From: Ophelia neglecta
Taxonomy: Eukaryota
Assembly: GCA_965285935.1 (NCBI GenBank)
Contig: OZ260663.1
Span: 19,344,001 to 19,408,000 of the forward strand
Direction: 5' to 3'
DNA length: 64,000 nt
In this document: positions 20,616 through 56,600 of the stretch, in pieces
Layout of the letters: each line of letters begins with the position of its first letter
How positions within the stretch are numbered: position 1 is the first letter of the stretch
Notes under the pieces: generated by a model
Database searches by the model: none
Seen by the model: the letters and a program-made list of their open reading frames with translations, nothing else
What the model was told of the DNA's origin: nothing
Position numbers and translations under genes: made by a program

Positions 20616-20865
20616 CAGGGGTCTACACTAACTTTTCTCAGCACTTGCCCAAGGGCAAGTAGCACCAGGAAACTACTTGCCCGCACCATAGGCTTACTGT
20701 CCCAAAATTATTTGTACATATAGAATATACAAGATATCCAACAATCGGCAATTTGGGGAATTTTAGCAGGTTTCCCCGGCGGGAAGTTAGTAACTAAAAC
20801 CATTGTGCCCGCAAGCAGATTTGAGGTGCCCCGGGACTTCGGGCAATAGTTAGTGTAAACCCCTG
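20616..20865. mobile_element. CAGGG-ended MITE (hAT-like), 250 bp
   Basis: TIR CAGGGGTCTACACTAAC...GTTAGTGTAAACCCCTG, flanked by direct TAGAAT; near-identical inverted copy at 32066-32315. Confidence 0.88.
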
Positions 20866-21420: not shown

Positions 21421-24400
21421 ATGTATAGACTTGCTAGACAGCTGCTGAAGTTTTCGTTTTACCAACCAGTGAATCTTTCTGTTTCAAAGTTCTGCCAACC
21501 AGTTATCAACATGTCCACTATTAAATATCTGGGGTAAGTAGTAAACACACGTATTTTTTAGTTATAAACTTAGTAACTTCCAAGTCTTTTATCCTTGGTG
21601 TAAAAAATATCCTCAAGGTGTAAAAAGTAAAAATCAGTTTTTAAAATTTTTAAAAATGAGATGGTATTAAAAGAGTTTTTGGTTTGTACTTGGTGTTCTG
21701 TTGAACCTGATGCAGACATTCTTAGAGTAGGTGGGGAGAGGAGTTTATAGTAAAGAAAACAACCACCGGTTCTAGTAATTTTTAAGCTATAAGGGACTTT
21801 AGCTGCCATGAATATGCACTATGATAGATGGCTAAATCCCCATTAGCTGGCTAAGAAGAAGAGTTGGCATGTACTCTCAACATCTGTATTTAGTAGTGTT
21901 ATGATTAATCAATTTAATGATAGGATGCTTTTTATTATGACCTACTGATCACAGATGATTCTGCAATTATCGGTATTATTTATCACATATGAATATGCAA
22001 AGTACACCATGTATATTCCTTGATTTTTAAAACAGAAGATTTCCACTGATTTCCACTAATTCGCATACAAAAGTTTGTTTCATATACATAATGCCAGCTT
22101 AATCGCTTAAAAATTATTTTAGTGATATCAGCTATCTAAAGCTCTAGGAAATGAAGGCATTAGTCATTTTTTTATCAATCATTTAATAGAAAGATTACTC
22201 TTGCAGTCAGAGTGAGGCTCAGAACATTGACCAGGAGCTGTTTACGGAGTACAGGTTCAGTGTCGACCAGCTGATGGAACTAGCAGGACTCAGCTGTGCT
22301 GTGGCCGTTACCAAGGTAACCTGCTAGGGATCACCATGCAGGGTTCGCATTTGTGCCATCTCTGTATCTTTTTGAAGCATAAAAATGGATTAGGATGCAA
22401 AATATTTGCCCCCCCCCCCCCCCTCCCTGTATGTACTGGGATGCTAATTTGTCAAGGAATATAACTGATTTACCCATGTTTAAAAAGACAGCGGGAGCAC
22501 TGCCAGGGTTAAAAATGATATCAAATAATATTCAGGCAAACCAACACGATTTTGCTAGGTAATCATAGGTACACAAACACCAGTGATCATAGTAAGGCTG
22601 TGACCATTTTGCGGGGGGGGGGGGGGGGGGGGGGGGGCAAGAATTTTACGACAAATTCTTTTCAACGAATCCAAAGCAAATCTTTTTAGAGTCAGATTTT
22701 TTTTGTCAACAGAACTCAGAGTTACATTCTTTCCAACAGAATTGAGATTTAAATTTTTTTTTCTTCGAAAATATGCATGAAGGATATCAAATGGTTGCTG
22801 CCTAACTGCAGATATTGTATCCTTCATGGCGGGTCACAATATTGTAGCATAATTAGATTGCCAAACTTTGCCCAGCTATGGACATAAATTTTCAGTGCAA
22901 CTGGGTGTGTCTCTTTTTTAAGCCATGCATTAGATCTATTGATCTTGTTTAAAGAATTACAACGTCCACCCGTTGCTGTATGCCAAATTCAAAACCAAGA
23001 AAGTAACTGTAACAAAAAGGGTGGTTATGGCTAAGATGGGATACCAATCCCAAGTTCAAATCTGACATATTGTTTTGCCTCTTCTTGTGACTCGACCAGT
23101 TAGGAACAAGATACCAACGCATGATTAATCTAGAAAGAACAAATTAACAAGGCGACTACTTGTCATAGTTAGCACGTTTCTGTGGAGTCACTGTGCTCAC
23201 AGGTGGAGGTGTGAGCTGCATGTCTACAAATATACCAAGTGTTTGTAATAGTATGCATGTACGTATATAGTTGAAATATACACAGCATATGATGACGAAT
23301 GTAATGCAAATTGTAACACAATTAAACCAGTTTTATTTTAAGTGTAACTTGAGTCAGCTGTGAGCTGGGCCTTTGACATACTATGAGTAAGTTGAGATAA
23401 TTTGTTGATGACATTGTACAGGTATACCCTGCTGAGGAGATGACCAAACCAGGTGGGGTGCTAGTGTGTTGTGGGCCAGGAAACAATGGAGGGGATGGTC
23501 TGGTCGCAGCCAGACACCTCAAACTGTTTGTAAGTGGATTATGAAAACATTAAAAATAAAAACATGTATAAAGTTAGTATTATCTAGTTATGATGGACTT
23601 AGCTTGGTAAGTCTTTGGCTATAATTATGCATTTATATTTTATTAAGACAATTAATTGATTAGAAAAGATTTATAATATGCTACTCTGCATGGATTAGGA
23701 CCCATAATAACTTTCAGGGCTTGATACCTCCTAGCAGAAGGCAGTGAATGTAGCTATATTTACTATTTTCTGATGTCTCTGTTTTTCATTGTTTTAACAT
23801 GATGATTAGGCTAGGCACATATGTTTAAAAATACCAATGGATTGTATTTCATTGATAGGCTTCGTATGTTATACACCTTATCAAAGAATGTTTGTTAGCA
23901 AAATGACCAGAAGATCAATTTAACATGGGATAAGTAAATTTAATATTTATACCAGGGCTACAATCCATGCGTATTCTACCCCAAACGTACTGAGAAGACA
24001 CTTTACGAGTCCTTGACGATCCAGTGTGAACGTATGGAGATTCCCTTCATCAATGACCTGCCTGACCCGACCCAAATCGGGGAGCAGTTCAATCTGATCA
24101 TCGATGCTCTATTTGGGTTTAGTTTCCGAGGTCCACCTCGACCGCAGTTTGCCATAATTTTGGAAAAGCTTAACCAATCACAGGTGCCGATTGCCAGTGT
24201 TGATGTACCCTCAGGTGAGTAGATTTTTTTCTTCCTTTTTTGATTACTAATAGTCAAAATATAGATTAGTAGTTTGATGAATTGGATGGAAATCAAATTG
24301 GAATCTGATCAGTTCATAGTTTGTTCACCATGTAATTCTGTTCATATCAGTGGATGAAAAAGTAGATTTTTATGCCTATGGCTATAATTTGCCTATTTGC

Positions 24401-27274: not shown

Positions 27275-30200
27275 ATGGCATCAAAAAGCACACAGATTAT
27301 CCGACAGGTTTTCCAGATGCTTGCTAAAGGAGCAGGGTATGACAGGGTCATGTCACAGGTAGGAAAGAACGGCGGCTACACATGTCAACGTGGCTTTCCT
27401 TTTCTGATTTTTTTTGCAAATGTAAAACACGTTGATTTATCTTGCAAAGTTTGATGGGCGATAAATCAGTTGTGTCCTTGGAAATGTTTGCTTTTCCAAG
27501 AAGTAGTATGGTTGAATGTCAAAGGTTACTAGTATTCCTATAGAATCATATTATACTAGCTGCAAACGCGTGCAAACGGGGTTATCCTTCAAACAAATGA
27601 ATGACACCACTGTCCCCACTCTTTCTCCCCCTCCCTCCCTCTCCAACTCCCTTCCCTTCCACTCTTGCCGCCCCCCCCCCGCTCCTGCCCCCCTTCCTTC
27701 CACTCCTGTTGCCCCTCCTTTCCCTACCACTCCTGCCCCCTGGGACCACTCCCTCCCAATCTTACAACCTCTCCACTCCCTCCAGCTACAGGATTTAAGC
27801 AAAATTGGGCAGAAAATAGTAAACTTTGTGCATGGGTTCACAGCTGCAATTCCAACCCATACATTTCCTTCATTGTATGCCAAATAAGCCAAATTGATGC
27901 ACACCCCAGATAGCATACTGCTGGTGGCCCACCGTCGGCCCACCGTCGGCTGCGTCGGTGGCCCACCGTCGGTTGCCGATGGTGGGCCGACGGTGGTATG
28001 ACCAGCTGACCACCGTCGGGCCAGCGTCGGCATGCCGCCGGTGGTGGGCCGACAGTGGGCCATCGGCGGCCAATATAGATTCTATTTATTTCATATTTGA
28101 TATACTTTAATTGGCTTGGAACATAAAAAATGCGGCTACAACATATTTTAGTTTACATTCTTTTTATTCATGGTATGTCTATATTACAAGCCCAAGCCTG
28201 TGACGTTTTAACTTTTAAGCATCACTATCCAGATCACTGGAGGAGACAAATACACTGGACCACCTGTCAGCAGTTGGGGGCTCCTGGATGTCCTGGGCTG
28301 AAATTAAACATAAATAATTAGACATAATATCATGCAGGCCAATAGATCTAATTATAGTAGCCTACATTCACATACAGGGGCAAGGGCGGGGGGGGGGGGG
28401 GGCCTAAAATTCACAATTTGGTCAGACTTGTATTTATCAATATGAAAACTAAAATGGGGTAGAACCTTTACTGTAAAACCATGCAAGATTAATTTCGGGA
28501 GCCCTATAGTCTATTTCAGGGTTAAACCGAAAAATTAAAGGGCTTGTGGAAATTAAGTTACTGGGAGAAACTAGACTAGTATTGTCGGAAACTCTACAGC
28601 ATGAAATTAAAAGGTAGCCACTTAAGCATAGCATTGGTATCAATTTCTATTCTACTACATTTTGCAAATTTAAGTCTACTTTTGTTTTTACCCTGATCGC
28701 GATATTCGCGAAATAAAGGGCTCGCGAAAATTAAGGGTTTTACAGTAGCAGAAAATGAAAATGATATAAATTCATAAGTCACAATGCAAGATTATTTTTT
28801 GCAGTCTGTTGTAGGACTGCCTCTGTTTACTTCTGATTCCCACACTACTACATTTTTGCACATCAGAGATAATTTTGTGAGTCAAAGGACTCGGGACTCA
28901 GGGGGAAATGACATGCCACTTTTTCCATCAGATGGTGCTATATTTTTATAAGAAAACACATGCTATGTTTAAGCTGTAAATCAATGGCCTTCGATGGAAT
29001 GTTATCAAAAATAGTCAAATTTAATGAATAGCATAGAGGACGTTTTTTCTTTAAAATCTGTCATGAATGTGAGTCAGGCCTTTTCTCATGTAAATGTTTC
29101 AAATCCTACGCATAACGTAGAAACTGTTTACCTTTCTTTTTATCTGCACGCTTCTTCCGCCCACCCTCACGGTCACACGAATTTTTCAGCCACAGCCTAA
29201 TCCCCACCTCCATCTCGGACTCTGATACTTTGCTCGCTTTCCCAGCATCTATATAAATATAATAGGTAAACATTGATTATTTTAGCGATCAATAACAAAA
29301 TTCATGTTACATTTATGATGGCCATATCACTTGTACATATTACAATTAATAATAATAATAATAGTAATAATAATAATCAGGATAATATAATAATAATCAG
29401 GCTAATATACAATATATAATAATATACAATAATAATATTGATGATAGTTACACATGATGATACCAGTTCAGCAAATTACCATATAAAGATTCCAATTGAA
29501 GATTTATCTTTAGGCCTATAAGAAGTCGCAGTATTGATTTTAACAAAAATATTGACTTATATTAGGAGTAGAAATGTCACCAGGAAAACCCCCATTAAAG
29601 ATGCATCACTAAAAGTTGTAATCGTGATACACTTTCAAGCAACACTCTTGTTTGATTGGCCTTTTAAACTGTTAAAATAAACATGTAATAAAATTATTGT
29701 CATTTAGTACGTCAATTGTCAAGTACGGAGTTGTTATAGCTTGATTGAATTTACAAACACAACGACGCCGGCAGCGCGGGATCACAGTCTCTCGTCTGCC
29801 GGAAAGTGCATTTAAAATGTGTATTGGGAACTCCCCTTCAATACGCCACCATGACGTTTCCAAAGGCCACGTATTAATTTGCAAGCTAATTAAGTCAGCA
29901 CCATAGAAAGAGGGAGGTGAGATAAGATGTAGAGGAGAGTGTTAAGATACAAACAAGACAGTGCCAGAGTACAGACCATAGTCATAATGGGATTGTCCTA
30001 CCTTTAATCGCTGTTGCCAGCAGTAAGTTTCCCAGCCCCCTCTTAGGTGGCTTTCCTGCCCAGTTAAACTGACTGGCTAGGTTATTCGTCAGGACTACAC
30101 TCATAATCCTCGCCACCACCTCCTTGGTGGAAAATCCGCCGAGACTGGAGAGGTGTCTGACCTGACAAAATATATGTATTTAAAAAAAGTGAATACCCCT

Positions 30201-33200
30201 GTAGCTTTTATATTAGAGCCCTAAAATAAATTGGCCATACATTGAAAATATCTCTCTTATTTGATAAATTTTATTTTTCAGCATTCAGAAAATGGAAAAA
30301 CTGTATCCAATTAATATAAGCATGTAGATCAACATATATCAGAGATGAAATCTTTTCATGTTGACTGAATATTAATTGTAGTACATGCTATAGTCTCATT
30401 TTCAATGTATCAGAAACATGTACCTTGACACTAGGAACAGAAGTAAACCGATACTAATCTTACATATTTCTGTGTGGAGGTGGATTATTATTAATATACT
30501 AAGTCTTAACTTACAAGAGTCCTTGCTTTGGCCTTCTCCTTCAGCATGACTTCGACTTCATCCACATCTTTCATCTTCTTTAGTGGCATGTTAAAGTCTT
30601 CCACATTAGCTTCCTCACTTAAGTTTAGGTTCTGTTTTTCAGCAATTTTTTTTAACATTGTTGAATTGTTCCTCAACATGCCCCTTAGCTGTTCCAACAA
30701 GGTGAACAGCTTTCGGTCTCTGAAAATATACATTCATGTATAAAAGACAAGAAAAGAGAAGCCTCAACTCTGAATTTGGCAGGTCTTGCTTTTGTCCCTT
30801 ATAGAGAAAAGAAACCTAGACCTAACTATATTGCAAAATAATGATGTTTCACTCTATTTGACCAATCCTGTTCTCTTACCTTCACAGGTTGTTTAATAAT
30901 GTACCACTATTTAGAAGTAGTGTGGAATAAATCATAATAATAATGATATAACTTTTGATGGGACATATCATACTGTATTCAATGCCCTTAATATTCATGG
31001 TTTTGACACTCAACTTATTTTGCAGCCCTTCAATTTAGCATTTTAGAGTTTCTGAAGATAGTTTCTGAAAGGCCTCAAATTTTCCCGAGCCATGTTGTGC
31101 GGTTTTTACCCTTCTCGCAAAATTCATGAAATAAAGGTATTTTACAGTAATTGGCACCATATATTCAATTAATTAAAACTGAAAATGAATATATTAAAAA
31201 ATAAAATTTGAAAGATAAGAGACAAAAATTACACATGGTGCTTTTCTTCCAAATTTAAAACCATTGCTACAATATATATACAAAAATAAAATAATTATTA
31301 ATACAAAAATTTCATTTATAGTGTACAAGCACCTTTCAGCAGCAGCCAGTGGACTTTGTAATGTAGGTGTGTCTGTGTCATCCAGTTGCTGGTGGAAGCT
31401 GTCACTGCAATATAATTGGGTCTACATGTATTATTCTTTATTAAAGAATATTTGGGTAAGGGAGGTGTACAAGATGAGAGTTGTCCATACCACAATATTT
31501 TGCTTTACTATTATTAATAAGTATTTAAAAAATTATATCCATGTATGTCCAGTGTACATGTAATGAAATGATATTCACCTTGTTCGGACTGGCAATGGCA
31601 TGATAGCAGGGGCATCGGGCACATTGCGGATCGTGGTTTTTTTCTTTTTCTTGGGTTCATTTTCTTCATCAGCATCGCTGTAATGTGAAGGTGATTCAAT
31701 ATGAAAAAACCTGTCTGGTGTTAGTACACAATTTAGCATCAACACATTTTAGTATAAAAATATGTCTATTGGCAGCATGTACATGTAGGCCCCCTATGTC
31801 ATATTAAAATATATAAGCCACTGATGATATCATTAATTAGCCCAGGCGGTGCTTACCTGTGGTTGAACCTGAGAAATCCAAGAAAAGGAAAACTAGGAAC
31901 TTTGGTTAGCATCTGTACAAGCCTAACTACATGAATTTCCAAAATTTGCTCTTAACAATTAAGCACACAATGTGTCTGCTGGCAGCCTGAATTTTTGACA
32001 ACAATGTGTTGAAACTAGTCTAGCGTGTTTTACGGGGTATGCACATTTTACATTTTTGCTGTTTTCAGAGATTTACACTAACTATTGCCCGACGTCCCCG
32101 GGCTCCTCAAATCTGCTTGAGGGCACAAAGGTTTTAGTTACTAACTTCCCGCCGGGCAACCTGCTAAAATTCCCCAAATCGCCGATTGTTGGATATCTTG
32201 TATGTTTTATATGTACAAATATTTTTGGGACACTAAGCCTATGATGCGGGCAAGTAGTTTCCTGGTGCTACTTGCCCTCAGGGCAAGTGCTGAGAAAAAT
32301 TAGTGTAGACCCCTGGGGGGTCCTTCTTGACAGGTCATTCTTAGGAGTGCTGTAATTAGTGGTTATGTTGGATAAGCCCTATAGCTTACTGACAGGTATT
32401 GTGCAGGCTAGCTTAATTAGGAAACCAGTGTTAGGCTCTTTGGATAACACTATCTGACATACTTAATCTTTTACTCCTCCAATGTACAAGATTTTATTTG
32501 CTCGAATGTAAATATTAATAAGTATTTAAAAAATTATATCCATGTATGTCCAGTGTACATGTAATGAAATGATATTCACCTTGTTCGGACTGGCAATGGC
32601 ATGATAGCAGGGGCATCGGGCACATTGCGGATCGTGGTTTTTTTCTTTTTCTTGGGTTCATTTTCTTCATCAGCATCGCTGTAATGTGAAGGTGATTCAA
32701 TATGAAAAAACCTGTCTGGTGTTAGTACACAATTTAGCATCAACACATTTTAGTATAAAAATATGTCTATTTGCAGCATGTACATGTATGCCATATTAAA
32801 ATATATAAGCCACTGATGATATCACTGAATCCAAATGGGGAAATAGTTCCCCTAAATATTCAATTAAGTAGTGAAATAGTTCACTTAACAATTTCGGAAA
32901 CTTTTGAAGTCAATGATAAAGGACGACTAGTAGCCAAATTATGTAGCAATTATTACTCAGTACTGACTTGTCAGACTCTCCTCTTTCAGGCAAACTATAT
33001 GCTTCACTGGTGTATTTCTTGTTAGGATGCCTGACTCTGTGAAAAATCAAGATTAATATCACGAGTTTAATGTATGTACAGAGACTCAGAAAGAGATGTA
33101 AGCTATGTAATACTAATGTATATAAAACTTTGAGTGCAAAGAGAAAAGTGTCGCTCACCTCTTTTTACAACAATCCACATCTGTGGTGTCTAAATCCGTG

Positions 33201-36200
33201 GACAAGTGTTCTAATGCCTTGTTACACTTTCTCCTGGCTTTGGCATAATCCTCTGAACAACATGAAATTATAACACTTACAATGACAGTGCAAGGAAAAG
33301 TATCTAGCATTATTGGAAGACAACGACTAACAACTGTAAAATATTGTATCCAATACAATTTGCACTGGGATTGAAAATCTTCAGTAGCAGCTAAGAGAAA
33401 GACAATACTGCAGGTCTTGCAGTATACAGTACAGCTGACCAAATTACCACTGAATTTGAATTGGAAACGTTTGAAAGTCATTATAATTCCTATTAAATTA
33501 TAGAATTAGGTGAAATGGCTAGGGCTTGACTTCAGACTATGTTTGTAAGGTTTCAACTCCTTTATCTGTCAACTGTACCCAAATCATTCGCATTTGAAGG
33601 CAGGTAATCAGCTGGGGGGCAAGCCAGTCACATAAATACATGTATATATACTATATGTCAGACTAACAAAATGCTATTCCTCAAAATCTATGTCTGTGGC
33701 AGGCTTTTATATCTAGGGAAGTTTATAAATGAGGATTCACTTTGGTGTGACCCCCAAGACTTGACGGCCTAAAGGCCAGTCTCTAAAATCAAGCCCTGCA
33801 TGACTCTGTGTTATATATTTGACAATGTTGTAAAAATTAAATTCTTAACAAGGAACTTCTTTAATATGCAGAATTTTCAGGAGTTCCGGCAAAAAATAAA
33901 AATTTCACAATTATCAGACTGGTCTCCTACAAAACAAATTCTCCAAACATACAAACTGGCTTCAAAATGAAAATGCGAATAATGTGTTCAGGAAAAATCT
34001 TCCACCCTTAACATATTTTATAGATATACAGCATTTAGAATTATTTTTTAGTAAGTCCACAATATTATCAATAACATCATGCCACTTACCTAATTCTCTC
34101 ACAATCTGAACTGGACTGAACACAGGCCAATTTCTTTCTGGTGGAAACTTATTTTCTATGGCCTTCGAAAGTGAGGCACCCTTGAGATGGGCCGGCCAAC
34201 TGCACTCTGACTCAGTGCCTCTCACGGATATCCATGAGGTTGGCACAACCTCCAACTCATCGGTTGATATGAACAGTACTATAGCATACATACATATGCT
34301 GGTAGTATTTCACCTGTAACAGATCCATAGACATCAGTGAGATACAGTAAGGTATACAAATCAACCATGCATACACAATTGAGGTGCAAGTTCTTATAAA
34401 GATTATATATATGCCGATAATTGATCAGGGTTTTCCCCATATAAGATAGTTTGGAGGGGAAGAAAAACTAATAGATGAATAACGCAAGTGGTAGAAGTTG
34501 TGCAAGGACACTGTGGCACGCCTTGCAGCTGGGGGTTTGGGGGGGGGTGCTGTAAGCCCCCAAGAGAAAATTTTGTATTTTAGTGCTGTATGAGACCCTT
34601 GTTATGGATAAGTTGAGCACCATTTCAATTATTTTAGTAAGGGGTTTGAAGAGGACATGAATTGCTTGTGTGACGTCCTTTATGAATAGGCCCTTAGACC
34701 TACAAGGGATGCTAATTATATAGTAGTATATTACTTGGCATCTAATTCAACTAAGCACTTTTGGTTATCAGGATTCAATTTTCAAGATATCTGAAACTAT
34801 TGTCGGGAAAAACACCTGCCGCAAATCAATTTTGTACTCTAGTAATAGACCTTCTCAACCTGTACACATCATCAATAACTACTAGTTATATACATGTAAT
34901 AACACTTTTTAGTGCAAATATAGCTGCCCTAGAGTTCCGCAATAACCTTCAGGTATTCTCCATAATACATGTTGCAGTTTTGAGTTTTCGTACAATGTAT
35001 GTACATGTATGTATAAGGAACAGCTGTGGCATCTGTAAGCTACCACAGGTGAAAGCTATAGCTAAAATATACTCTTGTCTCTTTGAGTGATATTGAAGCA
35101 GTGTATACTATATTTTTCTCACATCAGAGACTGTCTATATACATACATGTACATGTATATTAGTCATTTGACCCTTCGTTTTTAAACACTAACTTCCATC
35201 ATACCGTTATGTGTTGGTAAATATTAGCGTTTCATGTAAAAAATTTAATAGGGCCAGTCGGAGATGTTTCATACTGCTGCCCAACAACCGGTCAAAGCTG
35301 AAGCTCACTTCCAAAGCTGATTGCAGAGAAGGCAGTTGTCAGACTTGGGTTAGTGCATGGGGCTACTTCAGCTGTGCATATATGAATTTAACATTAGAAT
35401 AATGTTTTAAAAGCCCTTCCTTAGCGCATGTTAAAATAATTCAAACCAACTTATCAGGATTTTAGAGGGCTTTCCGTTCAGGTAAATTTCATATTTGTAT
35501 CAGTGTGATAGCTACAACTTTCACCATGAACATGGAACCGCTGCAAATCTATACATTCAACTGCAGACTATTGGTATGCAGCCACCAGTGCTGACACCTC
35601 CGTGCTAGCAGGCTGAACTAGGATTAGGACATAATTTATCATCTCCGACTGCCTCTTGCTTGAATGTAAATATTATTGAGTTCGAATCCCAGCTGAGGCA
35701 TAAAACTTTAATAAAAGTAGGTTGGTATAACATACAGTACTACACAAACTTCTGTAATTAAAGTGAAAAAACAATGCCGCTTGCTATCAATATATCTCTG
35801 CAGATGACGATCTAGTAGGTTAAACATGCAATACAACATCTTGCCGGAATGTACAATTACTAGTAGTACATCAATTAGAGCATTGGAATAGATACATACT
35901 TCTCATTAAATGGAAGTAAAACAACCTTTGTTACTATCTCACACACATCTATAGTTTCCAGGTGTTCAGAGAGATCACTGACCATAGATACATTTATCTT
36001 CAAAGAGTCAAATGGATAAGTAAAGTATGATTCTCTCCTGCGGAATTTCTTACAGACACATTGCCTTGAAGTACCAAGACACAAGATATTTTTTATGATG
36101 TATGTTTTGTCACCAATAAGAATTGCATTATCAGGCTTTTTTACTGATAAAAAGAAATGTGGGGTGTGAATTTGTTCATACTGTGTGCATAATCCAACAT

Positions 36201-39200
36201 TGAGCGGAAGGGGGCCATAATGGTGCTTCTTCTTGCAGTATGTTACACTTTCTTTGGCAGGAGGAGTCAGTTGCATTCTTTCTGCCAGTCGTCGTATGAC
36301 TTGTGGAAGTGGGTGTTTAGGTTTTCTGACCATCTTTTTTATTATCTGAAGATAATTTTCAAATGGAAATGCAGAGAAATTGTGCAGTGGTCCAAATCTG
36401 CTTGCCTGTTCTGCAATGTGAGTCAAAGCATGTACATTATATACAATCATCTCTGGGCCATATACAGCTCCAAAATGCTCAACAAAGGAGCAAAGCAGCC
36501 CTTCAACATAGTCACAATATTCCCCACACAAACTGACACTACAGAGTATGGTTACACTAACATATAACATCATGAAATTCTTATATAAAACATCTGTGAG
36601 TTTCCCCCTAAGAACAACGGGTCCAGTATACAGTAGAAATGTTCTGAACTCGGTTGCTTTCCATCGTTCAAGTTCATCCAATCTGCGTCCTTTCCGTCCA
36701 AATTCCCTTGGCAGATAAGACTGGAGGATCATGATAGAATCTGATATGGATCTAATGACATTACTACCCATACGCACAGGTAGAGGTCCTACTCCCATCC
36801 AAAGGCCTATCATTTTTTTCATAACACCAAGACAAATAAGGTGCATATAGTCTAATGGAAATTTAGAGACCATGCCAATGTTCAGTTGCCTCAAATTACT
36901 CTCTCCACGATGATGTTCTTCACATGTCATTTCATCAAAGGCTACATCCGTCCTCAGGGTAGCGTCCGTCTCCGGGAATGTCATTCTGTGCATATAGTAA
37001 ACACCACGTTGTTCACAGAAATCACATCCTTGAAATCCAGTATGTCCTTTAGTGATTTTCACAAATGAACGTGCAGGCGTATCACAAATAAAATTCTCAA
37101 TTGTGATCAAATATGCCTTGTCATTGAATGTTATGCCATCAGCAAATACACTATCCATTTCTTCAATAAAGTTTTTTAGATAGGCATTTGCATCGGTTGG
37201 TTTTGAAGTTCCAACCCACAAGCCAATCACAAAAGGTTCAGGATCATGTTCCTCACAAATCATGCCTAAGATTGGCCAGAAGCAGCGGGTGCTGCTTTTG
37301 AAAAGTGGAAGTCCATCAATATTGGTTTGTAGTGACAGGTTCTCATGTCCGCAAAGGTAAGCACATTTTGTAAGTCGGACCTTGATTCCTTCTTCAATGC
37401 CAAAGTGATGATACTGCCCACCTGCCACATCTTCAATAATATAATTACACTGTGTGTGCAACAGTGTACGGCCATCCTTGGGTAATGAAGGGAAATGCGG
37501 CCTGAGTAGGGCTAGCAAACTGTTGGTGTGAGCTAGTGGTGTACCACTATGGAGGACCCAATCCCTTAGCTGGTCTCTAAATTTCAATTGCCCATTATCA
37601 TCATCAGAATCATCAGAATCACTAGAACTGTCTCTGTCGGAGTCCTCAGCCCCATCACTCAGAAAAATAAAATCATCAGACTGATAATCCATATCGTCAG
37701 TAGAAGAATCCTCAGTTGCTGCTTCGCGAGAACTTGTTTCAGGTACAGTTGGTGTATCACTATCATACTGAATGGAGTCAGTGTCCTCCCCTGTATCATG
37801 TACATGTATATCCTCATTCAACTGAAGCCTACTGGTAACATCAGAAAGTATCTCTCCAGCTCTTGTTGCAGCGTGCCTGCGAATAGTTCTGTCAGAGAGG
37901 ATCTCATTATCTCCACCTGTGGCAAACATTTTGGAGCACTGTAAAAAACGTGAGTGGATTCAGGTACAGGACAATTTCTGGCCAAGCAGCATCTGACAAT
38001 TTAGGATGATTTTTTTTTTCTGAGTGATGGGGATAAGGTCTTCAAAGGTGCGAGTGACTCTGATGATCCTTAAGATGATAGTCATTGGTGCCAGGTGGTC
38101 AATCAGAATTTAGAGACCAGCTAAGGGATTTTATAAAGGAAAGAAAGCCCCAAGATACTATGATGGGAGCTGAAATAGTTTCCAAAAAAATTATAATACA
38201 TCATCCTGGAGAAAGTAATTTGAGGCAACTGAACACTGAAAGGGAAATTTAAATAGTCCTACTATGATCTATAGTCATATATATATTAGAATCCTTTTCA
38301 CATATCAACAGCTGTCAACCTGTTGAGAACTTTATTAAAGTATCATGAAATGAAAAGAATGCACCTTGTACTTGGTTGATGTGGAAAGTATTAGCCCTGA
38401 CAACATTGTATTAGCCAATAATTGAAGACTGTTTTTGCCATTGTATTAGCCAATAATTGAAGACTGTTTTTGCCATGTTCACATACATGTATACATTTGT
38501 TTTAATTGGCCCTTTACATTGAGCATTGTGTAACTGTAAAGGGCCTGAATTGTTGCTTTATTTGTGGCAAAATGCATCCACTTTAATTTTTACCACTAAT
38601 ATTGAGGACATTTTATTGGTAATAATCTGTCAAATGTTGTTAGCCATCAGGGCTGCCTGTGTCTGGCATCATTTACTCACCTTTGTAATTTCTCCAGTAC
38701 AAAAATCATAGAGGTTAGGGGCGAGTCTGGGTTTTTACAAGGGGGGGGGGGATTAACAGGTGTCTGTGTGACCATGGCAGGGGCGTCCTCGAGCCAATGT
38801 ACATGTACATGTAGGTGGCCGAGGGGGGGGGGATTAAACCCCTGATATTTACCATTTCATTCTGACATGTATGTGTACTGCTTTAAATAACGTTGATTCC
38901 AAATTAAAAGAAAGCCCGGTAATACAACATTTTTGTTAATGTAAGCACATCAGGCTCCCATTCTGGAAGTTTTTAATTTAAATGTATACTTTAATTCTTT
39001 CACCGTGGATATTTCCACGGGCTGTTGCTAGTATTAAGGAGACTATTTGAAGCCAGTATTCAAACCCCGTGCGGCAGGTCGCCAACAAACGCCAAACATT
39101 CAACAGGCCAATCCTACCTATAAAACCTGCTATTAAACTCAGCTAACTGAAGGAAAATGTGCTTTGTTTTCAAGTTAAAATTTGCTATATTGCTGACTGA

Positions 39201-41931
39201 CTATTTGTCATCTAAATATGATGATGATCTGGGAGAAAAGCTTCGGAAAGTCCCACAGCACAGGTGCTTGACACTACTATCAACAGATCTATCGAGCTAT
39301 CAACTAGGCCTATACTTTCTAGGGCCTGCGAAGCCCCTGTCTCTCTATTACTGCTAAGTAGTTTGATCACATAGTAGTGTCAAGCACGTGGAAAGGTTCA
39401 GAGTAAACGATAACTTACCTCGAGATTCCGTATGCCACAGACAGCTCCACAGTTTATACAGTTTGTACAGCCGAATAATACTTCTCCTGAGCGTCTCCTT
39501 GAATTCGAACGGACGCGGGGCAATGTGTTACAAAGGTTAGCCAGAAGACGGCGATGTGACGTGAAACACTTGGTCTGGCGCGTGCACAGTGACATCACGC
39601 GGACGAGAGATCCCGGGAGAGATACAAATGTGTGTACGTAGCGGGTGGGCCGTCAGCGGATCGCTGGCGGCTAATTTGCCGTTTATCGCCGACGTCGGCC
39701 CGATGTAGGGTTGCTATCTGGGACTGAATGAAATTGCAAATTGTTTCCCACTTTAAGCTTTGACTGCAGCTTTTAGTGAGGATAGGGTGGGGGCAGGTGC
39801 TCTCCCCCCTCTGGCCCTCTCCCTTCCACCACTGGCCCCCCCTCGTTTCCACTACTGTCCCCCCCCCCCTATACCACTCCTACCTCCCCCCCCCCTCTGG
39901 TCCCCTCCCTTTCTATACTGTCCCCCCTCCCTTTCACTTTTGTCTCCCCATCCCACTCCTACCTCCCCCCTCTGGCCCCTCCAACTACTGCCACCCCCAC
40001 CCCCCCATCCCAATCCTTCCTCTCCCTCTCAACTTAAAAACCAGTTTTAGGCGAATGGGAATAGGAATTCTTCGTTTTTATACTAGAAAGACCTGATTGA
40101 TTCACTCAATTCAACAGCAGGAAATTTAAATTGGGATAGGATAATTAAAATGAGGGTCTTAAGTAAAGCATTTCAAATGGAATAACAGTTTATGTTTAAA
40201 AGGGCGGATGAAAATTGATTCACACAAATGTTACCACCAGGGGCAAGGCAAAGTATGGGGGCTATTTTATTTCAACCCATCAAGAAGGAGGGCTATCCTA
40301 TTGCATCCCATTGAAAAAAGGCAGGCTATATTTTAGCTTTGAAGTCGTGAAAAAGCTACTCTATCCAGCGGTGCATTCAAATACAGTGAAATCTGTAAAT
40401 TAAGACCACCTAATGGACTGGAAAATACTGGTCTGATTATAAAGATGGTTTGTTTAGGCAGGGTATTCTACATTGAAGTCTAGCAAGCTACACTATGACA
40501 TTTATATAAGTGGTCTGAATTTCAGGTCGTCTAAATATAGAGGTGGTCTCTAAGGCTGGTTTCACTGTATACTGGTTCCAGATGCACTGTCACAGGCGCT
40601 TGTGATTGGTCATGCAGCATGAACCCCGACCACCACTCCATTAGAATGTTAAATACTTCATGCATAAGCATCAGCCAAAATAGCTCAGTTGGCTAAGCAT
40701 TTTACAGAAAAATTTTCTGATGCCATGATGTCGGGACGAAGTTACCACATTCCACTTGAAAGATGGCTGAGAAAAAAATATCTGTATTTCTGGTAATCAA
40801 CACCCTATTATGCCAACCCTATACCTTTTTTCCTCTGACAAAAAAAAGATAGTCATGAAAATTTGGCCAACAACGTGTCAGGGAAGTACCGTAAAGTCAG
40901 AAATGTTCACTGGGAATTTATTTAGCGAAATTTTGCGTACATCGCAAAATTAATTGCCGCAAACATTTCCAACCTGACAGTAGTCTATGCTTAGATACTG
41001 GCGGACCAGGTAATTTAATTCCCAGGAACATGCTTTCCTAGATTCCTGGAATATAATTCCCGCGAATATATCCAACTTTAAAAGTATCAACACAGCCCAT
41101 GTATATTTACTTTTTACAAAAAATATCCTTGCCCCCATAATTTGTGGTTGCCATGAATGACGAAAATGAGTATTACTGATTTCTTGCATTGCTTGTTCAG
41201 GCCAAGATCGTAGAAGCTGGTGCCGGACGGTGTGTGGCCGAGATGACTGTCGCAGAGGAGCACACCAACAAGAATGGCACTCTGCATGGCGGGCTGACTG
41301 CAACCTTAGTCGACACAATCTCCACCTGTGCCCTTATGACATCGTCTGAGGGAAAGGCCGGAGTTAGTGTAGACATGAACATCACGTGAGTGCTACCAAC
41401 CTATCTTAAAACTCAAAACTTATTGGTTGATTGATTTAATTGATTGCTTTATTATGTTTATATATTTTCTAGATTTCTTAATATTTTTATTTTATTCTAT
41501 TCGTATTTTAACTATCCCAAATCTGCCCACCGCTGCTCTCATCAGGGCAGTAGCTTTTTCCATTTCCTCTGATGTATTCTCTGTGGAGGAGAAAATCTAA
41601 ATTTGGAGAAAAGTGCCGTTAAATTCTACGCCGGTACTCAAACAATAAAATTGCTCAATATACACCATATTCTTGCCATATTTTTGTTAAATATGGTGGA
41701 GAAAATTTCACATTCCCATATGGCTTATGGGCTTGAAAATATATTGGCTAAAACACATAAATATGTATTTGTAGGTACATGCGAGCCGCTAAGATGGGGG
41801 AGACTATTGTTGTGGATGCTAGTACTCTTAAAATGGGTAAAGCACTAGCATTTCTGTCAGTGGATATCACCAACAAAGAAAACGGGAAACTACTTGCACA
41901 GGGACGTCACACCAAACATATTGGCTCATGA
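27275..41931 (+). CDS. ACOT13: Acyl-CoA thioesterase 13 (THEM2, hotdog fold), 141 aa
   Basis: Exons 27275-27358, 41201-41385, 41775-41931 join in phase. Motifs EEHTNKNGTLHGGLTATLVD, GVSVDMNITYM, KMGKALAFLSVDI, AQGRHTKHI. Confidence 0.93.
27924..28072. repeat. Subterminal repeat array of the EnSpm element
   Basis: About 10 direct and inverted copies of GGCCCACCGTCGG / CCGACGGTGGGCC; degenerate copies at 39641-39705. Confidence 0.88.
28215..34291 (-). CDS. Transposon accessory protein (TnpA-like role, DUF4806-like C-terminus), 377-425 aa depending on optional exons
   Basis: Exons 34291-34090, 33252-33159, 33036-32968, 32711-32580, 31868-31857, 31710-31579, 31404-31333, 30719-30515, 30161-30002, 29248-29132, 28297-28215 are all GT-AG and phase-consistent to TAA. 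N-terminus MYAIVLF..LEVVPTSW..CSWP; C-terminus LSSLGG..VARIMSVVLTNNLASQFNWAGK..IRLWLKNSCDREGGRKKR; AATAAA near 28165. Confidence 0.82.
28471..28745. mobile_element. TA-flanked CTGTA-ended MITE nested in the EnSpm element
   Basis: TA-CTGTAAAACC...GGTTTTACAG-TA; related decayed copies near 30972-31148, 16292-16470 and 52490-52670. Confidence 0.7.
31512..32824. repeat. Direct duplication of about 315 bp (31512-31832 and 32513-32824) containing a coding exon
   Basis: Copies are 1001 bp apart; the ORF track shows identical 61-aa translations at 31514-31699 and 32515-32700. Confidence 0.95.
32066..32315. mobile_element. Copy of the CAGGG-ended MITE, nested in the EnSpm element
   Basis: Reverse complement of 20616-20865 with few substitutions; left TIR decayed; no TSD visible. 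Confidence 0.85.
35875..37929 (-). CDS. EnSpm/CACTA (CMC) DDE transposase, 684 aa, single exon, uninterrupted
   Basis: LPKDGRTLL, NIDGLPLFKSS..FWPIL (first D), FICDTPARSFVK..KGHTG..GCDFC (second D, CxxC), PLDYMHLICLGV, WKATEFRTFLLY, YNVHALTH, FGPL..FSAFPFEN (E). Confidence 0.92.
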   Translation of the reverse strand: MFATGGDNEILSDRTIRRHAATRAGEILSDVTSRLQLNEDIHVHDTGEDTDSIQYDSDTPTVPETSSREAATEDSSTDDMDYQSDDFIFLSDGAEDSDRDSSSDSDDSDDDNGQLKFRDQLRDWVLHSGTPLAHTNSLLALLRPHFPSLPKDGRTLLHTQCNYIIEDVAGGQYHHFGIEEGIKVRLTKCAYLCGHENLSLQTNIDGLPLFKSSTRCFWPILGMICEEHDPEPFVIGLWVGTSKPTDANAYLKNFIEEMDSVFADGITFNDKAYLITIENFICDTPARSFVKITKGHTGFQGCDFCEQRGVYYMHRMTFPETDATLRTDVAFDEMTCEEHHRGESNLRQLNIGMVSKFPLDYMHLICLGVMKKMIGLWMGVGPLPVRMGSNVIRSISDSIMILQSYLPREFGRKGRRLDELERWKATEFRTFLLYTGPVVLRGKLTDVLYKNFMMLYVSVTILCSVSLCGEYCDYVEGLLCSFVEHFGAVYGPEMIVYNVHALTHIAEQASRFGPLHNFSAFPFENYLQIIKKMVRKPKHPLPQVIRRLAERMQLTPPAKESVTYCKKKHHYGPLPLNVGLCTQYEQIHTPHFFLSVKKPDNAILIGDKTYIIKNILCLGTSRQCVCKKFRRRESYFTYPFDSLKINVSMVSDLSEHLETIDVCEIVTKVVLLPFNEKYVSIPML
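40384..40567. mobile_element. CAGT-ended MITE (pogo-type)
   Basis: TA-CAGTGAAATCTG...GGTTTCACTG-TA; related to 52314-52489 and 58616-58793. Confidence 0.8.
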
Positions 41932-47675: not shown

Positions 47676-50600
47676 CTACGTTTTCTCATTTTTCTCTTGT
47701 GCCTTGGCCACGTTTTTTACACAAGCCCTGTGAACGAGGCCTTTCTCGTTGCCATGTCGACAAACCAGCCAATCCTGGTCGACTTCCTTCATCAGGTCGA
47801 GAACTGAACCTTTCTCAAAACTCAGCTGGTTGTCTTCCGTGCCCACGTAGTGACAAAGCGTCTGTACTGACCTGAAAGTAGTAGCTTTATATCTATAAGA
47901 TGGACAAATTTTCAACATTTTGGCCAGCAAAATATGTCAAGTGTTGAATTGATTTTCATGTTGTGGATTGAAGTTCTGCCACCATGAAACATGGTATTTA
48001 ATTCAGCCTTCAAATAATACCATTTAAATAACTTGTGGTTAGATTGGGATTGAATACGACCTCCAGAAGTGTGGTTAGATTGAGTTTGTATATGACCTCA
48101 AGGAGTGTGGTTAGCTTGGGAGTGTAAGGTAATTGTCGTAATCTACAACAAGCCACTGGCCCTTCGGCAAAAATATCCTTATTATTATAGCTTTGATTAA
48201 TATGTTGTTAGTTACTATAAATAGAAATACAATTTGTTGTAAAACCAGATCATCCCTCAAGTGTAGTAAGACCAGAAGTAACTTGACCCCAAGCCATGTA
48301 GTTTAAGGAGGACTTATGATAGAGTCATCTATCTAGTGAAGTTCCAATATAATCTATACATTTGAGTGAGCCAGTAGATACTGCTATGTAAACACTGATG
48401 GTTACAAGATAGTGTTTCTACTCACCCGATAGGGGTCAGTGGAGGAGAGGGAAGAGGTCTTCTCTGTCCCAGAGCTCTCTCATCTAAACTCCTGACTCGC
48501 ATCAGCTCAGCCCGCTTCCCTGCTGTGTTCATACTTCCTGTACTACTCAGCGAGGGAACAGGTGGTGCCACCTTGTTGCAGTACATGGAAACACTTCTTA
48601 CCACTCCACTTGATGTCCCTGACTTTGACCCCTTGGTTGACCTTGATTTTGAAGGGTCAAGTAGAAGCTTGTCAAATACATTTATCAGCTTGGGTCCCAG
48701 GCTGCTCCAGCGCCTAGGTGGAGTTGGAGCACTACTACTACTAGTAGTGGTAGTAGTAGTAGTGGAAGCAGTAGCAGTAGGAGTTGGTAGTGAACTATCA
48801 CTGAGACGTTTGCTCAGATCCGAAGCAGGCTGGCTGCGTTTAGGGATTTGGAACAATGGAGCATTGGTTACATCCCTTGAGGGCATGCCCTGGGCATCAA
48901 ACAGGCCTTGTGGCTTGGCAGCCTGGTTTCCAAGGCTACCTTCCTCACTCTGGGCTGTGCCTGAGACTTTTGTTTCCATGGAAGTCTTGGTTTGCTGTGC
49001 CTGATTCTCCAGGTCAAACCTGTACTCGGTGACCCCCTTCTTGTAGACATCCTTGTCGACTGATGACAGGCCGGAGCTGGTCATACCCTTCAGCCGTCTG
49101 CTCACCTTGGCCAATATACCCTCTGGCTTTACAAGGTCAGAGCTGGCAAGGTCACCCATCATCTCATTGTCTTTTATAATCTGTTCTGAAGGCTTTGATT
49201 GGTCCACAACTGATTGGACTGACTCTCCTGATTGGCTCTCATCTGAAGCACTGTTTTGGAACATTTTTGGAGGGCCATCGCTACCATCAGAACTGGCGGT
49301 ACTGGCACTACTGATGTTAGAGTCGTTAATCCCTTTCAGTTTTGGAACTTGCTGCGGACCTTTGGAGCCAATCGGAAGATAATCATTGACATTGGCGAGC
49401 AGCTCTTTCTGGCTTAGCTTGTCGAAAAATTTCTTGCCCCTGTCCTGAAGATAGTCCTTGGTTTGTTTGCTCAAAAGGAGCGCCTGCTTGCTGACTTCCC
49501 TGACCCTGAGGTCAGGGGTCAAGCTTTTGAAGTCAGACGTCATGCCAAGGACTGCCCTCTGGTGGAGGAACTGGTGACCTTCAATCAGGGCATCCGCAGA
49601 GCGTGAAACATGCTTCTCCAGCATGTAATCGGCCATCTGTTTCTGGTGTCTCTCTTTCAGCATGCGAAACTCGAAATTATACTCCAACCGAAACTGAATC
49701 TGTGCCAGCGGCTGAAGACTGGTGGTCATATCAAGAAAGAGGGACTTGGTAGCCGTAGTGGACAAGGCCACGAAGCCAGTGGAGGAGTAATGACGACTGA
49801 TTAGTCCCTGGTGGGACTGAATGTGGCTCAGCCAGAAATCTAAGGCCTTGTGGCTGTAATAGAAAACATAAATATAAATCACTAATACTACTAGTTTTAA
49901 TATAAATCCCTAGTACTACTAAAACTTCCTGTATGTAAGCCCATGTCAATTATTTTCCCATATGTGGCCAATACAACATTTCTTGCCATGATAAATATTA
50001 AAAACATTCGTTGGGAAATGAGACTGACATGAATTTGTTATTAATTATTAGTGTATTTAACCGAGAAACTAGTGACCCTTATTGAGGAAGCTAAAAGATT
50101 TCTAGATTTGAAATATGAAAAAAGGTGTCTTCTATTAGATGTAATATGGTAATTATTATGAAACTTCATAATGTCATTGATAAAGACACTGCAAGGTGGA
50201 AACAAGATGTGGCTTTAACTATGTTGTCACCATGTTTGAGAATTATGCCTTGTTTGAGTTTTGAACTTGAAACAAGTTTGTAACTTACTTGAGAAGGCCG
50301 AAGATGAAGGCATTGACCTTGAGCCAAGTGGTGTCCAAGAAACTGAGAGCCTTCAAATCTTTAATCAACTCTGCCAGAATAGGGGACGAGGGACCTATTG
50401 AAAATATACCATGTAAATGAGAACAAGAGAATTAATACATAATGAAATGGTTGTAATATGTGTTATTCACAAATTCTATCCTGCATTTAATTTCTGCATC
50501 TTTTAAGAAGCTGCTATCATCTGTAGTAGCTATAAAGATTTTAATTTTATACATGCATTTTGGCACTCCATTCTATTGTTAATCTCTTTACTGCTTTCTT

Positions 50601-53600: not shown

Positions 53601-56600
53601 GGTCCGAGGTAAAAACGTTAAAAAGAACTATTCAGGAATGAAGTCCTAGTAGTATATAAACAGCGTCTTACCCATGGGCAGGGATCTGGGACGAGGTTTA
53701 AGTAGCTCCCTGGAGAGTGGGTGTCTAGCAACCACGCTGTGCTGGTCACAGTATCCTAGGAACTGATTACGTTTCCTAGGGGACTGGTGTGGGCTGGCAT
53801 GGGGTGAGTGGAAGCGAACTTCCTCCGAGAAACTGACACTCTTCTTAGGTCCTCGGGGCTCGCCGTCTGCTGGAACAAGGAAAACATTATTAATGGTTCA
53901 CACAAGTGAAGCTACAATTTCCAGTGATGCCGCCCACTTCCTGATTTCACGTCGTCTCCTCGGATGAAATCACGAACCATAATCTGTCCCCGAGTCCCTT
54001 GAAGTGGACCCTCCTCTCCATGGGTTGGCTACTGGCCAAGGAGGACAAACTATGGAGAAAAGAGGCTCACTTCAAGGGACTCAGAGTCCCAAATATGATG
54101 CGTGGGTTCTTTTTATCTGGAAGATCACTTCAGTGAAAGTGGGCAGCATGCACTAAAGTCACTACTTTCAGGGAGTTTATATTTATAAGAATAATCTTAA
54201 TGAACACCACAATTTATTGTAAACAGTAACAAAAGTAGGGAGACCAAATATAAGCTTTACAAGGTTTATCTCTCTCCGTAATCTATATAATGCCTGGACT
54301 GACCATCAGCTGGCGCCTCTGGTGGGTCACGATTTTCCCCCGAGTCAGAAGAGGAGCTGTGAAGCACGGCGTGAGTAGTATGACAGGCACACGCAGGCAG
54401 TGGAATCTGCTCCGGAGAGGTGGGAACTGCGGCGGGCATTTCTACAATGGGAGTCTTGTCACCGTCGTCTGCTTCGGGATCGTCATGGCAACAGTGGGAC
54501 TGCTGGCAGCCACACTGTGATTGGGTTGGAATCTACAGGAAAAAAAGAACAAATAAATTTTAAGGAAAAATGTAGGTTTATTTTGTTGTATTCAGTCAAA
54601 GAGTTTTGGTTTTTGCCAAGTCTCTAACAGATGAAATCTAAGTTTAAATGATTTAGCTGACATTAGTCATTGATGTACTATAACATTTGCATATACAGTT
54701 CAGATGGAGATTCCAAAACCTTTCTCTAGCTTTCAAGGCTAGGGCAAAAACATACCCTTTGAAAGGGAAATCTGACATAAAATGTAGCTTGGTTAGGAAA
54801 ATCTGCCCAAAAATAGCTCTGTACAAGGTGTTTGAAACAAATCATTATCCGTACTGTCTTAGCTAAAATAACATGTATATTTACAAAAGAGGAACAGTGC
54901 TTCTACATGCATCATTATACTGAGAACAATGCTCTGAGACAACTTGTAGAGTGACTTGTCAGAAAAACAGACCCTTGGCTAGGAAAACATTAAATCCTAG
55001 ACCAAAAGAGAATTGGTAAACAATTGATAGCTTGATAGGGACCATTGCCTTCAAAAACGACTCGCTCTTGAGGCACACCAGTACCATGTCCCTGGGGAGT
55101 ATCTGTACGTACCGGAGGTGGATCCTGTTTGTCCTGGCCCCGCTCCTCTGCCTCCTGGCAGACGACAGCCATCTGGAGCTCTCCGGTGCTGTGTCTCCAC
55201 GTACACTGACCCTCGTGGGTCACCAGCTGGTACTTGATCTCCCCGTTCTGACTATACTTGAGAACCATACCGTCGTAGGGATCTGACCAGGAGCGATGCT
55301 TCAGGGCGTTCGGCTTACGATCGCCTCGGCGTCTTTTGACTAGACAGGACTTTAACGGTTTTTTCTGAGGGTCTGAGTTGTCGGAGTCCACAGGTTTGGC
55401 TTGTTCTCCGGGTACTACTGGGCGACTGCGTGGTGGTTTTGGCGGGGGTCGCCGAGGTTCTGTGCCTGTCACAGTACTACTTGGGTCACGTGACTGAGGC
55501 CGGCGGGTTGGCGAAACAAGTAAATATTCTACTGTGCGACAAGGTTCTTTATCATATGGCTCCATCAGTCGAGCATAGGTGGGGTGCGATTTGGTCATTG
55601 GCTTTGTATTTTCATCATCTAACTGTTCTCGGCATTTCTGACACAGTGTTGCCCCCTTGTGGTGGCTAATGCCGAGTCCGCTGTCCTTTCGAGAGATTCC
55701 TCCTCGAGTTTCACAGTCCTCATTGTCTCCCCAGTACTCTCGTTCCTGTGCTGCCACTCGGTGGCCACCATCAGAACTAGAGTCTGACACTGTCTCTTCT
55801 GGGGCGTAGCTGTAGAGTTTTGGGTTAGAGGTCGGGGCAGGTGGTAGATCCCTAGGAGGTTCTCTCTCCGCTGGTTTAAGTACCCGATGACCTTGCCCTT
55901 CATAAGACCCTGGATCAATGCCAGAACTACTACTGCTGCAGAAGCTGTTATTGGTGGAAGCTGAATCTGTGCTCCTGGACCTGCGTGACGAGGACAGTCC
56001 CGGTGAGGATTCCCGAGACTCTGAGGATTCAGCCCGGCGTATACGGCTCCTGGGTTTGTCTGGTAGCTTGGGTTTATCCTGGGCCGATTGGCAGCCTCGT
56101 AACATGGGGATCTGGCTGCCCTTGGCCAATAATCGGGGCTTGGCAGCCACTAAGGGTTTGGCTGGACTTGATGGTTTACTTAATGCAGGTTTTGGTGGCA
56201 CAGGTGGCGCTGATGGCTTGGAGGCCACTTGTGGTTTGGCTGGGACTTGGGGTTTTCTGGTGGTGGCAGTAGACCTACTGGGAATACCTGACATTTTACC
56301 AGGCAGTCGAGAAGGCTTACGGGGTATCTGAGAGGACTTGGAGCCACTCTGACTTTGAACTGGACCTTGTCCTTGACTTAGACCTTGTGCTTGACCTGAA
56401 GCGAGGGTTGTGGCTGGGACAGACATAGGCTTCTCAGCCGATGTGGCTAACTCAGGAGGTAGGCTCCCTGCCCTTACATTTCTTAAATCACCGACTCCAG
56501 TGGTCGTGCCCCCTTCTTGGCCTTTGACCTCACAATGACCTTTAACCTCTTCACTGGAGCTCATAGAAACACCCAGCTTCCCATGATCCTCTATTATTTT

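Follow-up and report, generated by a model that had tools for sequence, protein, structure and literature searches.

A spliced second gene in an EnSpm/CMC transposon of Ophelia neglecta encodes a predicted Tudor-like and BEN-domain protein that may bind the element's own ends

What does a many-exon gene do inside a DNA transposon? The question is raised by a 64,000-nt stretch of the Ophelia neglecta genome (assembly GCA_965285935.1, contig OZ260663.1, 19,344,001-19,408,000, forward strand), here called the window, whose own numbering is used for all positions. A complete animal EnSpm/CMC (TRC-type) transposon in the window carries, downstream of its transposase, a spliced accessory gene whose product has a predicted Tudor-like barrel, a coiled coil and a predicted BEN domain. 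By analogy with plant elements, this second gene of an intact transposon would encode a TnpA-like binder of the element's own subterminal repeats and a regulator of its promoter, a reading to which we give a probability of roughly 60%.

The element occupies 27905..39722 on the minus strand (11,818 bp) and is flanked by a 2-bp target site duplication (TSD). Its terminal inverted repeats (TIRs), a perfect 11-bp pair with a CCC-type start, lie at 39712..39722 (5' end, minus strand, CCCAGATAGCA) and 27905..27915 (3' end, plus strand). CCC termini, a short TIR and a 2-bp TSD have been described for SmTRC1-type TRC elements (PMC1636069), and the window element is an animal EnSpm/CMC (TRC) transposon because it combines a CCC TIR and a 2-bp TSD with a transposase that lies upstream of the accessory gene on the same strand. 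As expected of an animal EnSpm/CACTA element, its family (family A) is multi-copy and dispersed, with at least 15 candidate left ends genome-wide; seven more copies were mapped, with main segments 89-99.6% identical, and among the eight copies examined all five with both ends perfect have a 2-bp TSD, of four different dinucleotides. The transposase is an intact single-exon gene of 684 amino acids (aa) (35875..37929, minus strand, with an acceptor before 37938). D205, D283 and E524, which we take to be its catalytic residues, are kept in an alignment over 18 transposase relatives. In Pfam it matches DUF4218 only, at 23.5 bits and below the cut-off, and there was no match to Transposase_21.

The initial annotation had read the scattered open reading frames (ORFs) as one hidden gene of 9-11 exons, and the exons do splice into a single frame. 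Assemblies of 11, 10 and 9 exons are each open to a stop at 28215 (403, 370 and 366 aa), and all 10 introns are GT-AG. Exon 1 (34090..34313, minus strand like the others; coding 34291-34090 from the ATG at 34291) encodes the barrel (residues 1-67) and is followed by exon 2 (33252-33159), with a helix and a conserved D(L/I)x(S/T) motif, exon 3 (33036-32968), a basic/acidic linker, and exon 4 (32678-32580), an acidic linker with a proline-rich motif. Both quoted motifs, IVLF..VVPTSW..CSWP and PKKKKK, are present, the latter resembling a nuclear localisation signal and lying in exon 4. Exon 5 (31868-31857) is a putative, frame-preserving micro-exon of 12 nt, identical and with AG/GT ends in all seven other copies, and exon 6 (31677-31579) lies within a 321-bp copy, including exon 4, that replaces about 270 bp of intron. 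The linker exon 7 (31404-31333) leads to exon 8 (30719-30515), with the coiled-coil helix and the start of the DUF4806/BEN region, exon 9 (30161-30002), with the BEN core and its middle loop, exon 10 (29248-29132), with the last BEN helix and a basic DRxGGRKKR tail, and exon 11 (28297-28215), an acidic tail and the stop. Exon 6 is an internal duplicate of exon 4 and derived: five of the seven other copies have it and two lack it. The older form of the gene therefore has 10 exons, and 11 came with the duplication, which narrows the range first given.

Residues 1-365 of the 10-exon product align with P0091, a RefSeq model from the abalone Haliotis rufescens (36% identity, E 5e-84), and the alignment runs continuously across junctions 1-2, 2-3, 8-9 and 9-10 and into exon 8. 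A phase-0 intron two codons ahead of the BEN core is found at the same place in all six other loci examined, and a phase-1 intron ahead of the last BEN helix in four of five. Judged by this homology, which supports its junctions, the gene model is real; the linker exons 3-7 are its least certain part, with weaker support for their junctions because the linker is not conserved. One other family-A copy is identical to the window across all 11 exons, while one copy has a stop codon in exon 1 and four of the seven others carry frame-breaking indels in the gene. With an intact young copy and a second one identical in every exon, reconstitution is feasible.

The initial annotation had also held that this is a transposon gene linked to CMC transposases, a reading supported by the element ends and by linkage across families. 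Related accessory genes occur in nine families of the genome, eight of which have a transposase just upstream. Among 13 distant homologs of exon 1, nine have a same-strand transposase upstream, between 1 nt and about 3 kb away; of the other four, two have family-D ends, one is closely related to family C and one is solitary, and the first three are deleted relatives of linked families. Of 20 more transposase loci, six also showed accessory exons. Next to transposases that are only 33-47% identical, the genes agree in strand and position, in domain order and in intron phases. In a tree of 18 transposases, from which loci lacking a 400-aa ORF were omitted, carriers of the gene are divided from a sister group by a branch with 100/100 support. 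The sister group has a cysteine-rich insertion near the transposase N-terminus that the carriers lack, and in the genome examined this insertion and the Tudor-BEN gene are mutually exclusive.

The C-terminal part of the protein is predicted to be DUF4806 with a BEN fold, as had been proposed. The DUF4806 profile (PF16064) is split co-linearly between exon 8 (profile positions 2-29, 14.7 bits) and exon 9 (35-75, 12.4 bits), each below the curated cut-off of 25 bits when the exons are scanned separately, and a PF16064 search of the genome gave no match because the domain is split by introns. Eight of 32 long homologs exceed the cut-off, including the abalone protein (31.3 bits). In the model of that protein the barrel is ordered and the linker disordered, and there follow a long coiled-coil-like helix (232-266), in agreement with the coiled coil first suggested, and a helical domain of five helices with a middle loop. 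This domain matches BEND6 best (Z 9.1, rmsd 2.1, 80 residues aligned), followed by Bsg25A (7.2), BANP (6.2) and NACC1 (5.9), so that the top four matches are all BEN domains; Foldseek likewise placed the Bsg25A BEN domain first (probability 0.98, E 0.12). The window region aligns with its abalone counterpart ungapped except for one residue, and it carries basic residues within and beyond the last helix. BEN domains bind short motifs by a basic last helix (PMC10080584, PMC8887127), and DUF4806 has already been published as a subtype of BEN (PMC10789644, PMC11075544, citing Pan et al. 2023). With BEND6, Bsg25A, Insv, BANP and NACC1 the accessory protein shares the predicted fold, the basic last helix and a long helix upstream; it differs from solved BEN domains in being transposon-borne, in the Tudor-like barrel ahead and in sequence (9-20% identity).

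Candidate sites for such a domain lie just inside the element. At 27929..28058, in the CpG-rich 3' end, a 10-bp repeat of the CCGACGGTGG type that contains CpG is present nine times within 130 bp, in both orientations; the whole window has 12 matches, nine of them in this array, against 0.49 expected. BEN binding motifs are of similar size (PMC8887127). Families B, D, E and F each have their own, different end repeats. At the other end of the element, a predicted non-coding leader exon (39419..39722, minus strand) coincides with a CpG-rich promoter end, and a donor motif follows 39419, 304 nt into the element. Acceptors stand ahead of the start codons of both transposase and accessory gene, and one ahead of the start codon is also found in families C, F and I. 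The leader exon would serve both genes, and this arrangement fits one promoter with two outputs, which has been described for SmTRC1 (PMC1636069).

Clustered repeats, the size of BEN motifs, the donor and acceptor layout and the precedent of plant TnpA together suggest a TnpA-like role in end binding. The shared leader exon would have two alternative splice partners, the transposase or, with the latter skipped, the accessory gene. The coiled coil would oligomerise the accessory protein, whose BEN domains would hold the repeat arrays at both ends; there the protein could assist the transposase by bringing the ends together, and could control the promoter in the 5' end. Its N-terminal barrel would be a contact module, either to another protein or to chromatin, the latter with some chance of methyl-lysine reading. 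A co-fold of transposase residues 115-684 with exon 1, in which alignments were not used, scored 0.00, which is no evidence either way.

Known systems offer several parallels. In SmTRC1 of Schistosoma, transcripts from which the transposase ORF is skipped yield the spliced SmTRC-PrA, and the authors compare this protein with TnpA (PMC1636069). It has the same CCC termini, 2-bp TSD, single long transposase ORF and separate spliced accessory protein; the likeness drawn here is one of layout. No domain is assigned to SmTRC-PrA in the text searched, whereas the window protein combines a Tudor-like barrel, a coiled coil and BEN (PMC1636069). Spm TnpA of maize and Arabidopsis is also a second CACTA product that binds clustered, family-specific end motifs (10.64898/2026.08.24.746577, PMC1636069), and binding to such motifs is proposed here by comparison. 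TnpA is built of helix-turn-helix (HTH) motifs that are tri-helical and stand in tandem, derives from a transposase and is reported only in flowering plants, while animal Spm-type elements usually have an HTH domain fused to the transposase (10.64898/2026.08.24.746577). In the window a separate gene supplies a BEN domain instead; the searched text of that preprint mentions other accessory domains without naming them, and does not name BEN. VANC of VANDAL elements shares the logic of a second protein on element DNA, with a different superfamily and fold (10.64898/2026.08.24.746577). The single ordered helical domain of the accessory protein matches BEN, where that of TnpA is, compared by description, a tri-helical HTH. 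In Harbinger elements a Myb/SANT partner, and for lentiviral integrase the PWWP tether LEDGF, is a separate helper that binds element DNA or chromatin on the enzyme's behalf; the logic is similar, although superfamilies and folds differ from those of the window system.

Several points weigh against the TnpA-like assignment. The repeats are tightly packed at the 3' end but few at the 5' end, and their binder could be the transposase itself. The BEN fold was modelled on a homolog with 36% identity and not on the window's own domain. For the solitary homolog (C86), 20 kb of upstream sequence contain no transposase, and two of the nine rows labelled as carriers in the transposase tree (L074, L078) have no accessory match of their own within 10 kb. 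The Tudor-BEN gene was detected at none of 12 sister-group loci (L079-L088, L092, L093), so EnSpm-type elements need not all carry it; nor were accessory exons detected at two near-relative transposase loci with other long ORFs in 10 kb. Selection on the gene is weakly supported by variants found in at least two family-A copies (pN/pS 0.16, compared with 0.54 for private variants), a value that stands on a very small count of 11 changes, four non-synonymous and seven synonymous. The density of private variants is 0.044 in exons and 0.040 in introns, the exons being no less variable overall.

What the protein does besides gripping DNA depends on its N-terminus, which had been proposed to be a Tudor/PWWP-like barrel. 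The Tudor half of that proposal fits better than the PWWP half: the domain is predicted to be a Tudor-type barrel resembling HTD-2, a lobe of hybrid Tudor domains, with sequence homology that is undetectable. Folded by itself, exon 1 reached a pLDDT of 96.6. In a wide structural search of 48,161 chains it matched ARID4B (Z 5.9, rmsd 1.6), ARID4A (5.1) and KDM4C (4.2), all below Z 8, with the next match at 2.8; 45 residues were aligned at rmsd 1.6-2.5. The aligned ranges (ARID4B 36-84, KDM4C 906-961) are exactly HTD-2, the middle lobe in these double Tudors, whose lobes interdigitate (PMC8038949, PMC5114558), and the matched barrel would share its permuted strand order beta3-beta4-beta1'-beta2'. 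Foldseek gave no match to the barrel at E 0.001 or better, and PWWP and canonical Tudor domains are absent among the matches listed in both searches, which does not exclude them. No Tudor Pfam match was obtained for 11 members of the exon-1 family, and PDB sequence searches gave no Tudor match with the exon-1 profile and no match at all with the full-length profile. The Myb domain of RAP1, found with the exon-1 profile in PDB (E 0.039), was rejected as a match to a helix only.

The barrel resembles HTD-2 of KDM4A-C and ARID4A/B in the aligned range, in the predicted permuted order and in aromatics near the cage positions. It differs in standing alone, in a helical insert of 20 residues, in the helix that follows and in the lack of sequence similarity. 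There is no HTD-1 partner lobe: the first HTD-2 strand opens the protein, and after the barrel come a helix and then disorder. A profile of 11 exon-1 homologs taken from this genome collected 3,362 clusters (50% identity) at E <=0.001, and an Atlas look-up returned unnamed, mostly arthropod clusters at 0.95-0.96 and no named look-alike. Word-based protein searches were less productive: exon 1 had no match, the abalone protein found only its own isoform and the alignment query found 12 proteins.

Does this barrel read histones? KDM4A binds trimethyl-lysine through F932, W967 and Y973 of HTD-2 (PMC5114558). In the window protein F7 would correspond to F932 and, by motif, W32 to W967, and a Tyr or Phe of the family to Y973 by end register, window F58 being one residue off. 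These three cage positions are the family's most conserved aromatics (aromatic in 89%, 99% and 80%), and all three are kept in 119 of 150 complete domains (162 domains in all), although the profile used for selection favours them. Methyl-lysine reading nevertheless seems doubtful. It is somewhat better supported that the barrel is not a histone reader, its aromatics packing into a small core beneath the inserted helix, and that it binds DNA or protein; this alternative touches the Tudor step only and leaves end binding as it stands. Between W32 and F58 some 20 residues are inserted, with a helix at 38-46 and conserved P51 and W55, in place of the five-residue turn of KDM4, and this insert, with its own Trp at the rim of the would-be cage, may bury the aromatics. 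An acidic residue two positions after the Phe, to which we presume a role in KDM4, accompanies the three aromatics in only 73 of 150 domains and is replaced by Ser in the window. Profile comparison with a host KDM4-like HTD-2 gave a probability of just 0.17, and five of 100 shuffles scored as high. The best matches, ARID4B and ARID4A, are DNA-binding Tudors, and ARID4A is reported to lack an aromatic box and not to bind methylated tails (PMC8038949). DNA binding by ARID4 Tudors is chiefly through HTD-1, on the other hand, and not the lobe matched here (PMC8038949).

Fish SLIP-GC-like nuclear GTPases (P0009, P0012) carry this barrel in tandem at their N-terminus, and an Anopheles protein (P0002) has it five times; these are possible domestications. 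The first cage position is altered in all three proteins. It is Leu in the GTPase-fused fish copies, which agrees better with a barrel that is not a reader.

Another explanation, which we consider improbable, makes the protein chiefly an activator that counters silencing, as VANC and Arabidopsis TnpA do: it would bind the CpG-rich ends and keep the promoter open without a structural role in cutting. Both ends have a ratio of observed to expected CpG near 1.06 (1.07 in the 3' subterminal array, 1.06 at the 5' end) in a depleted window (0.44). Among BEN proteins, BANP is an activator sensitive to methylation, and CG forms part of the BEND3 motif (PMC8887127). In Arabidopsis, the ends of Spm are demethylated and activated by TnpA (10.64898/2026.08.24.746577). 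The TnpA effect depends on plant DNA glycosylases, however (10.64898/2026.08.24.746577), and the CpG richness of a young element needs no special cause. The end repeats of families D and E, moreover, are AT-rich and without CpG.

Less probable still is an auto-repressor that occupies the ends and limits the activity of the element. BEND3 represses through its own motif (PMC8887127) and TnpA represses an active promoter (PMC1636069). Family A may also have a second brake in its antisense fragments of the transposase ORF, which lie in the intron upstream of it (38005..38238, minus strand) and match 36876-36916 and 37560-37677 (93% and 72%). Their predicted pairing encloses the transposase acceptor, and this modelled pre-mRNA fold could favour skipping or yield double-stranded RNA. 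The mosaic is present in all five other family-A copies in which the acceptor was located; nothing like it turned up ahead of the transposase in nine loci of other families, and it is not clade-wide. Against repression, eight families keep the gene beside the transposase, and a pure repressor is seldom retained by all the autonomous families in a clade.

That the gene is host cargo, captured without a role in transposition, is largely refuted: many introns, database homologs annotated as ordinary uncharacterised genes and the barrel's presence in the apparent host proteins of fish and Anopheles would suit it, but the constancy of position and strand, of domain order and of intron phases next to such divergent transposases does not, nor do tick and fish homologs that are multi-locus and a beetle gene model that continues from two such units into a piece of a transposase.

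In animal TRC elements, spliced accessory proteins are already known (2006), as is the identity of DUF4806 with BEN (2023). No paper was found that joins BEN/DUF4806 or a hybrid Tudor domain to EnSpm; Repbase and the figures and supplements of the preprint (962 Spm proteins) lay outside this search and may hold such entries. On the TnpA-like reading, animal CACTA-type elements would gain a concrete functional counterpart of TnpA made of unrelated parts, and the BEN domain of each family and its own end repeat form a directly testable pairing. The unnamed domain family of exon 1 gains a predicted place on the structural map, as HTD-2-like. A bolder and rather unlikely extension is that an entire clade of animal EnSpm elements encodes a chromatin tether, in which a stand-alone KDM4-type HTD-2 with a working cage is joined to an end-gripping BEN domain. 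If so, the element would be guided to, or protected in, chromatin of a given histone mark, and thousands of orphan Tudor-like/DUF4806 animal proteins would for the most part be such helpers, and a source from which host BEN factors are drawn. A working cage would make this a histone reader encoded by a DNA transposon, bearing on target choice and on the escape of animal transposons from silencing; a helper role of this kind has so far been tested only for unrelated proteins of plants.

Some observations concern the layout of the genes. In a family-B locus (L048), a 61-bp inverted repeat (77%) has its arms on either side of the transposase ORF and could loop it out. In families D and E (L054/L055, L060/L061, L067) the accessory ATG lies about 20 nt (D) or 1 nt (E) past the transposase stop, a tight spacing that suggests coupled translation or an acceptor inside the end of the transposase. 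A 4-nt duplication at 34295-34291, found in the window and in three of the seven other copies, creates an out-of-frame ATG just before the accessory start, which could reduce translation. Intron 4 contains an insertion of about 245 bp (32074-32315) that is absent from one copy (C9b); further copies of it lie at 20616-20865 and beside another copy of the element (C1), and it is likely a small mobile element. Host sequences nearby include a YjeF_N exon (23944-24219, plus strand), RUN and SH3 exons (47679-49909, minus strand) and a host gene with a low-complexity frame of 1,236 codons and no Pfam match (54990-58700, minus strand).

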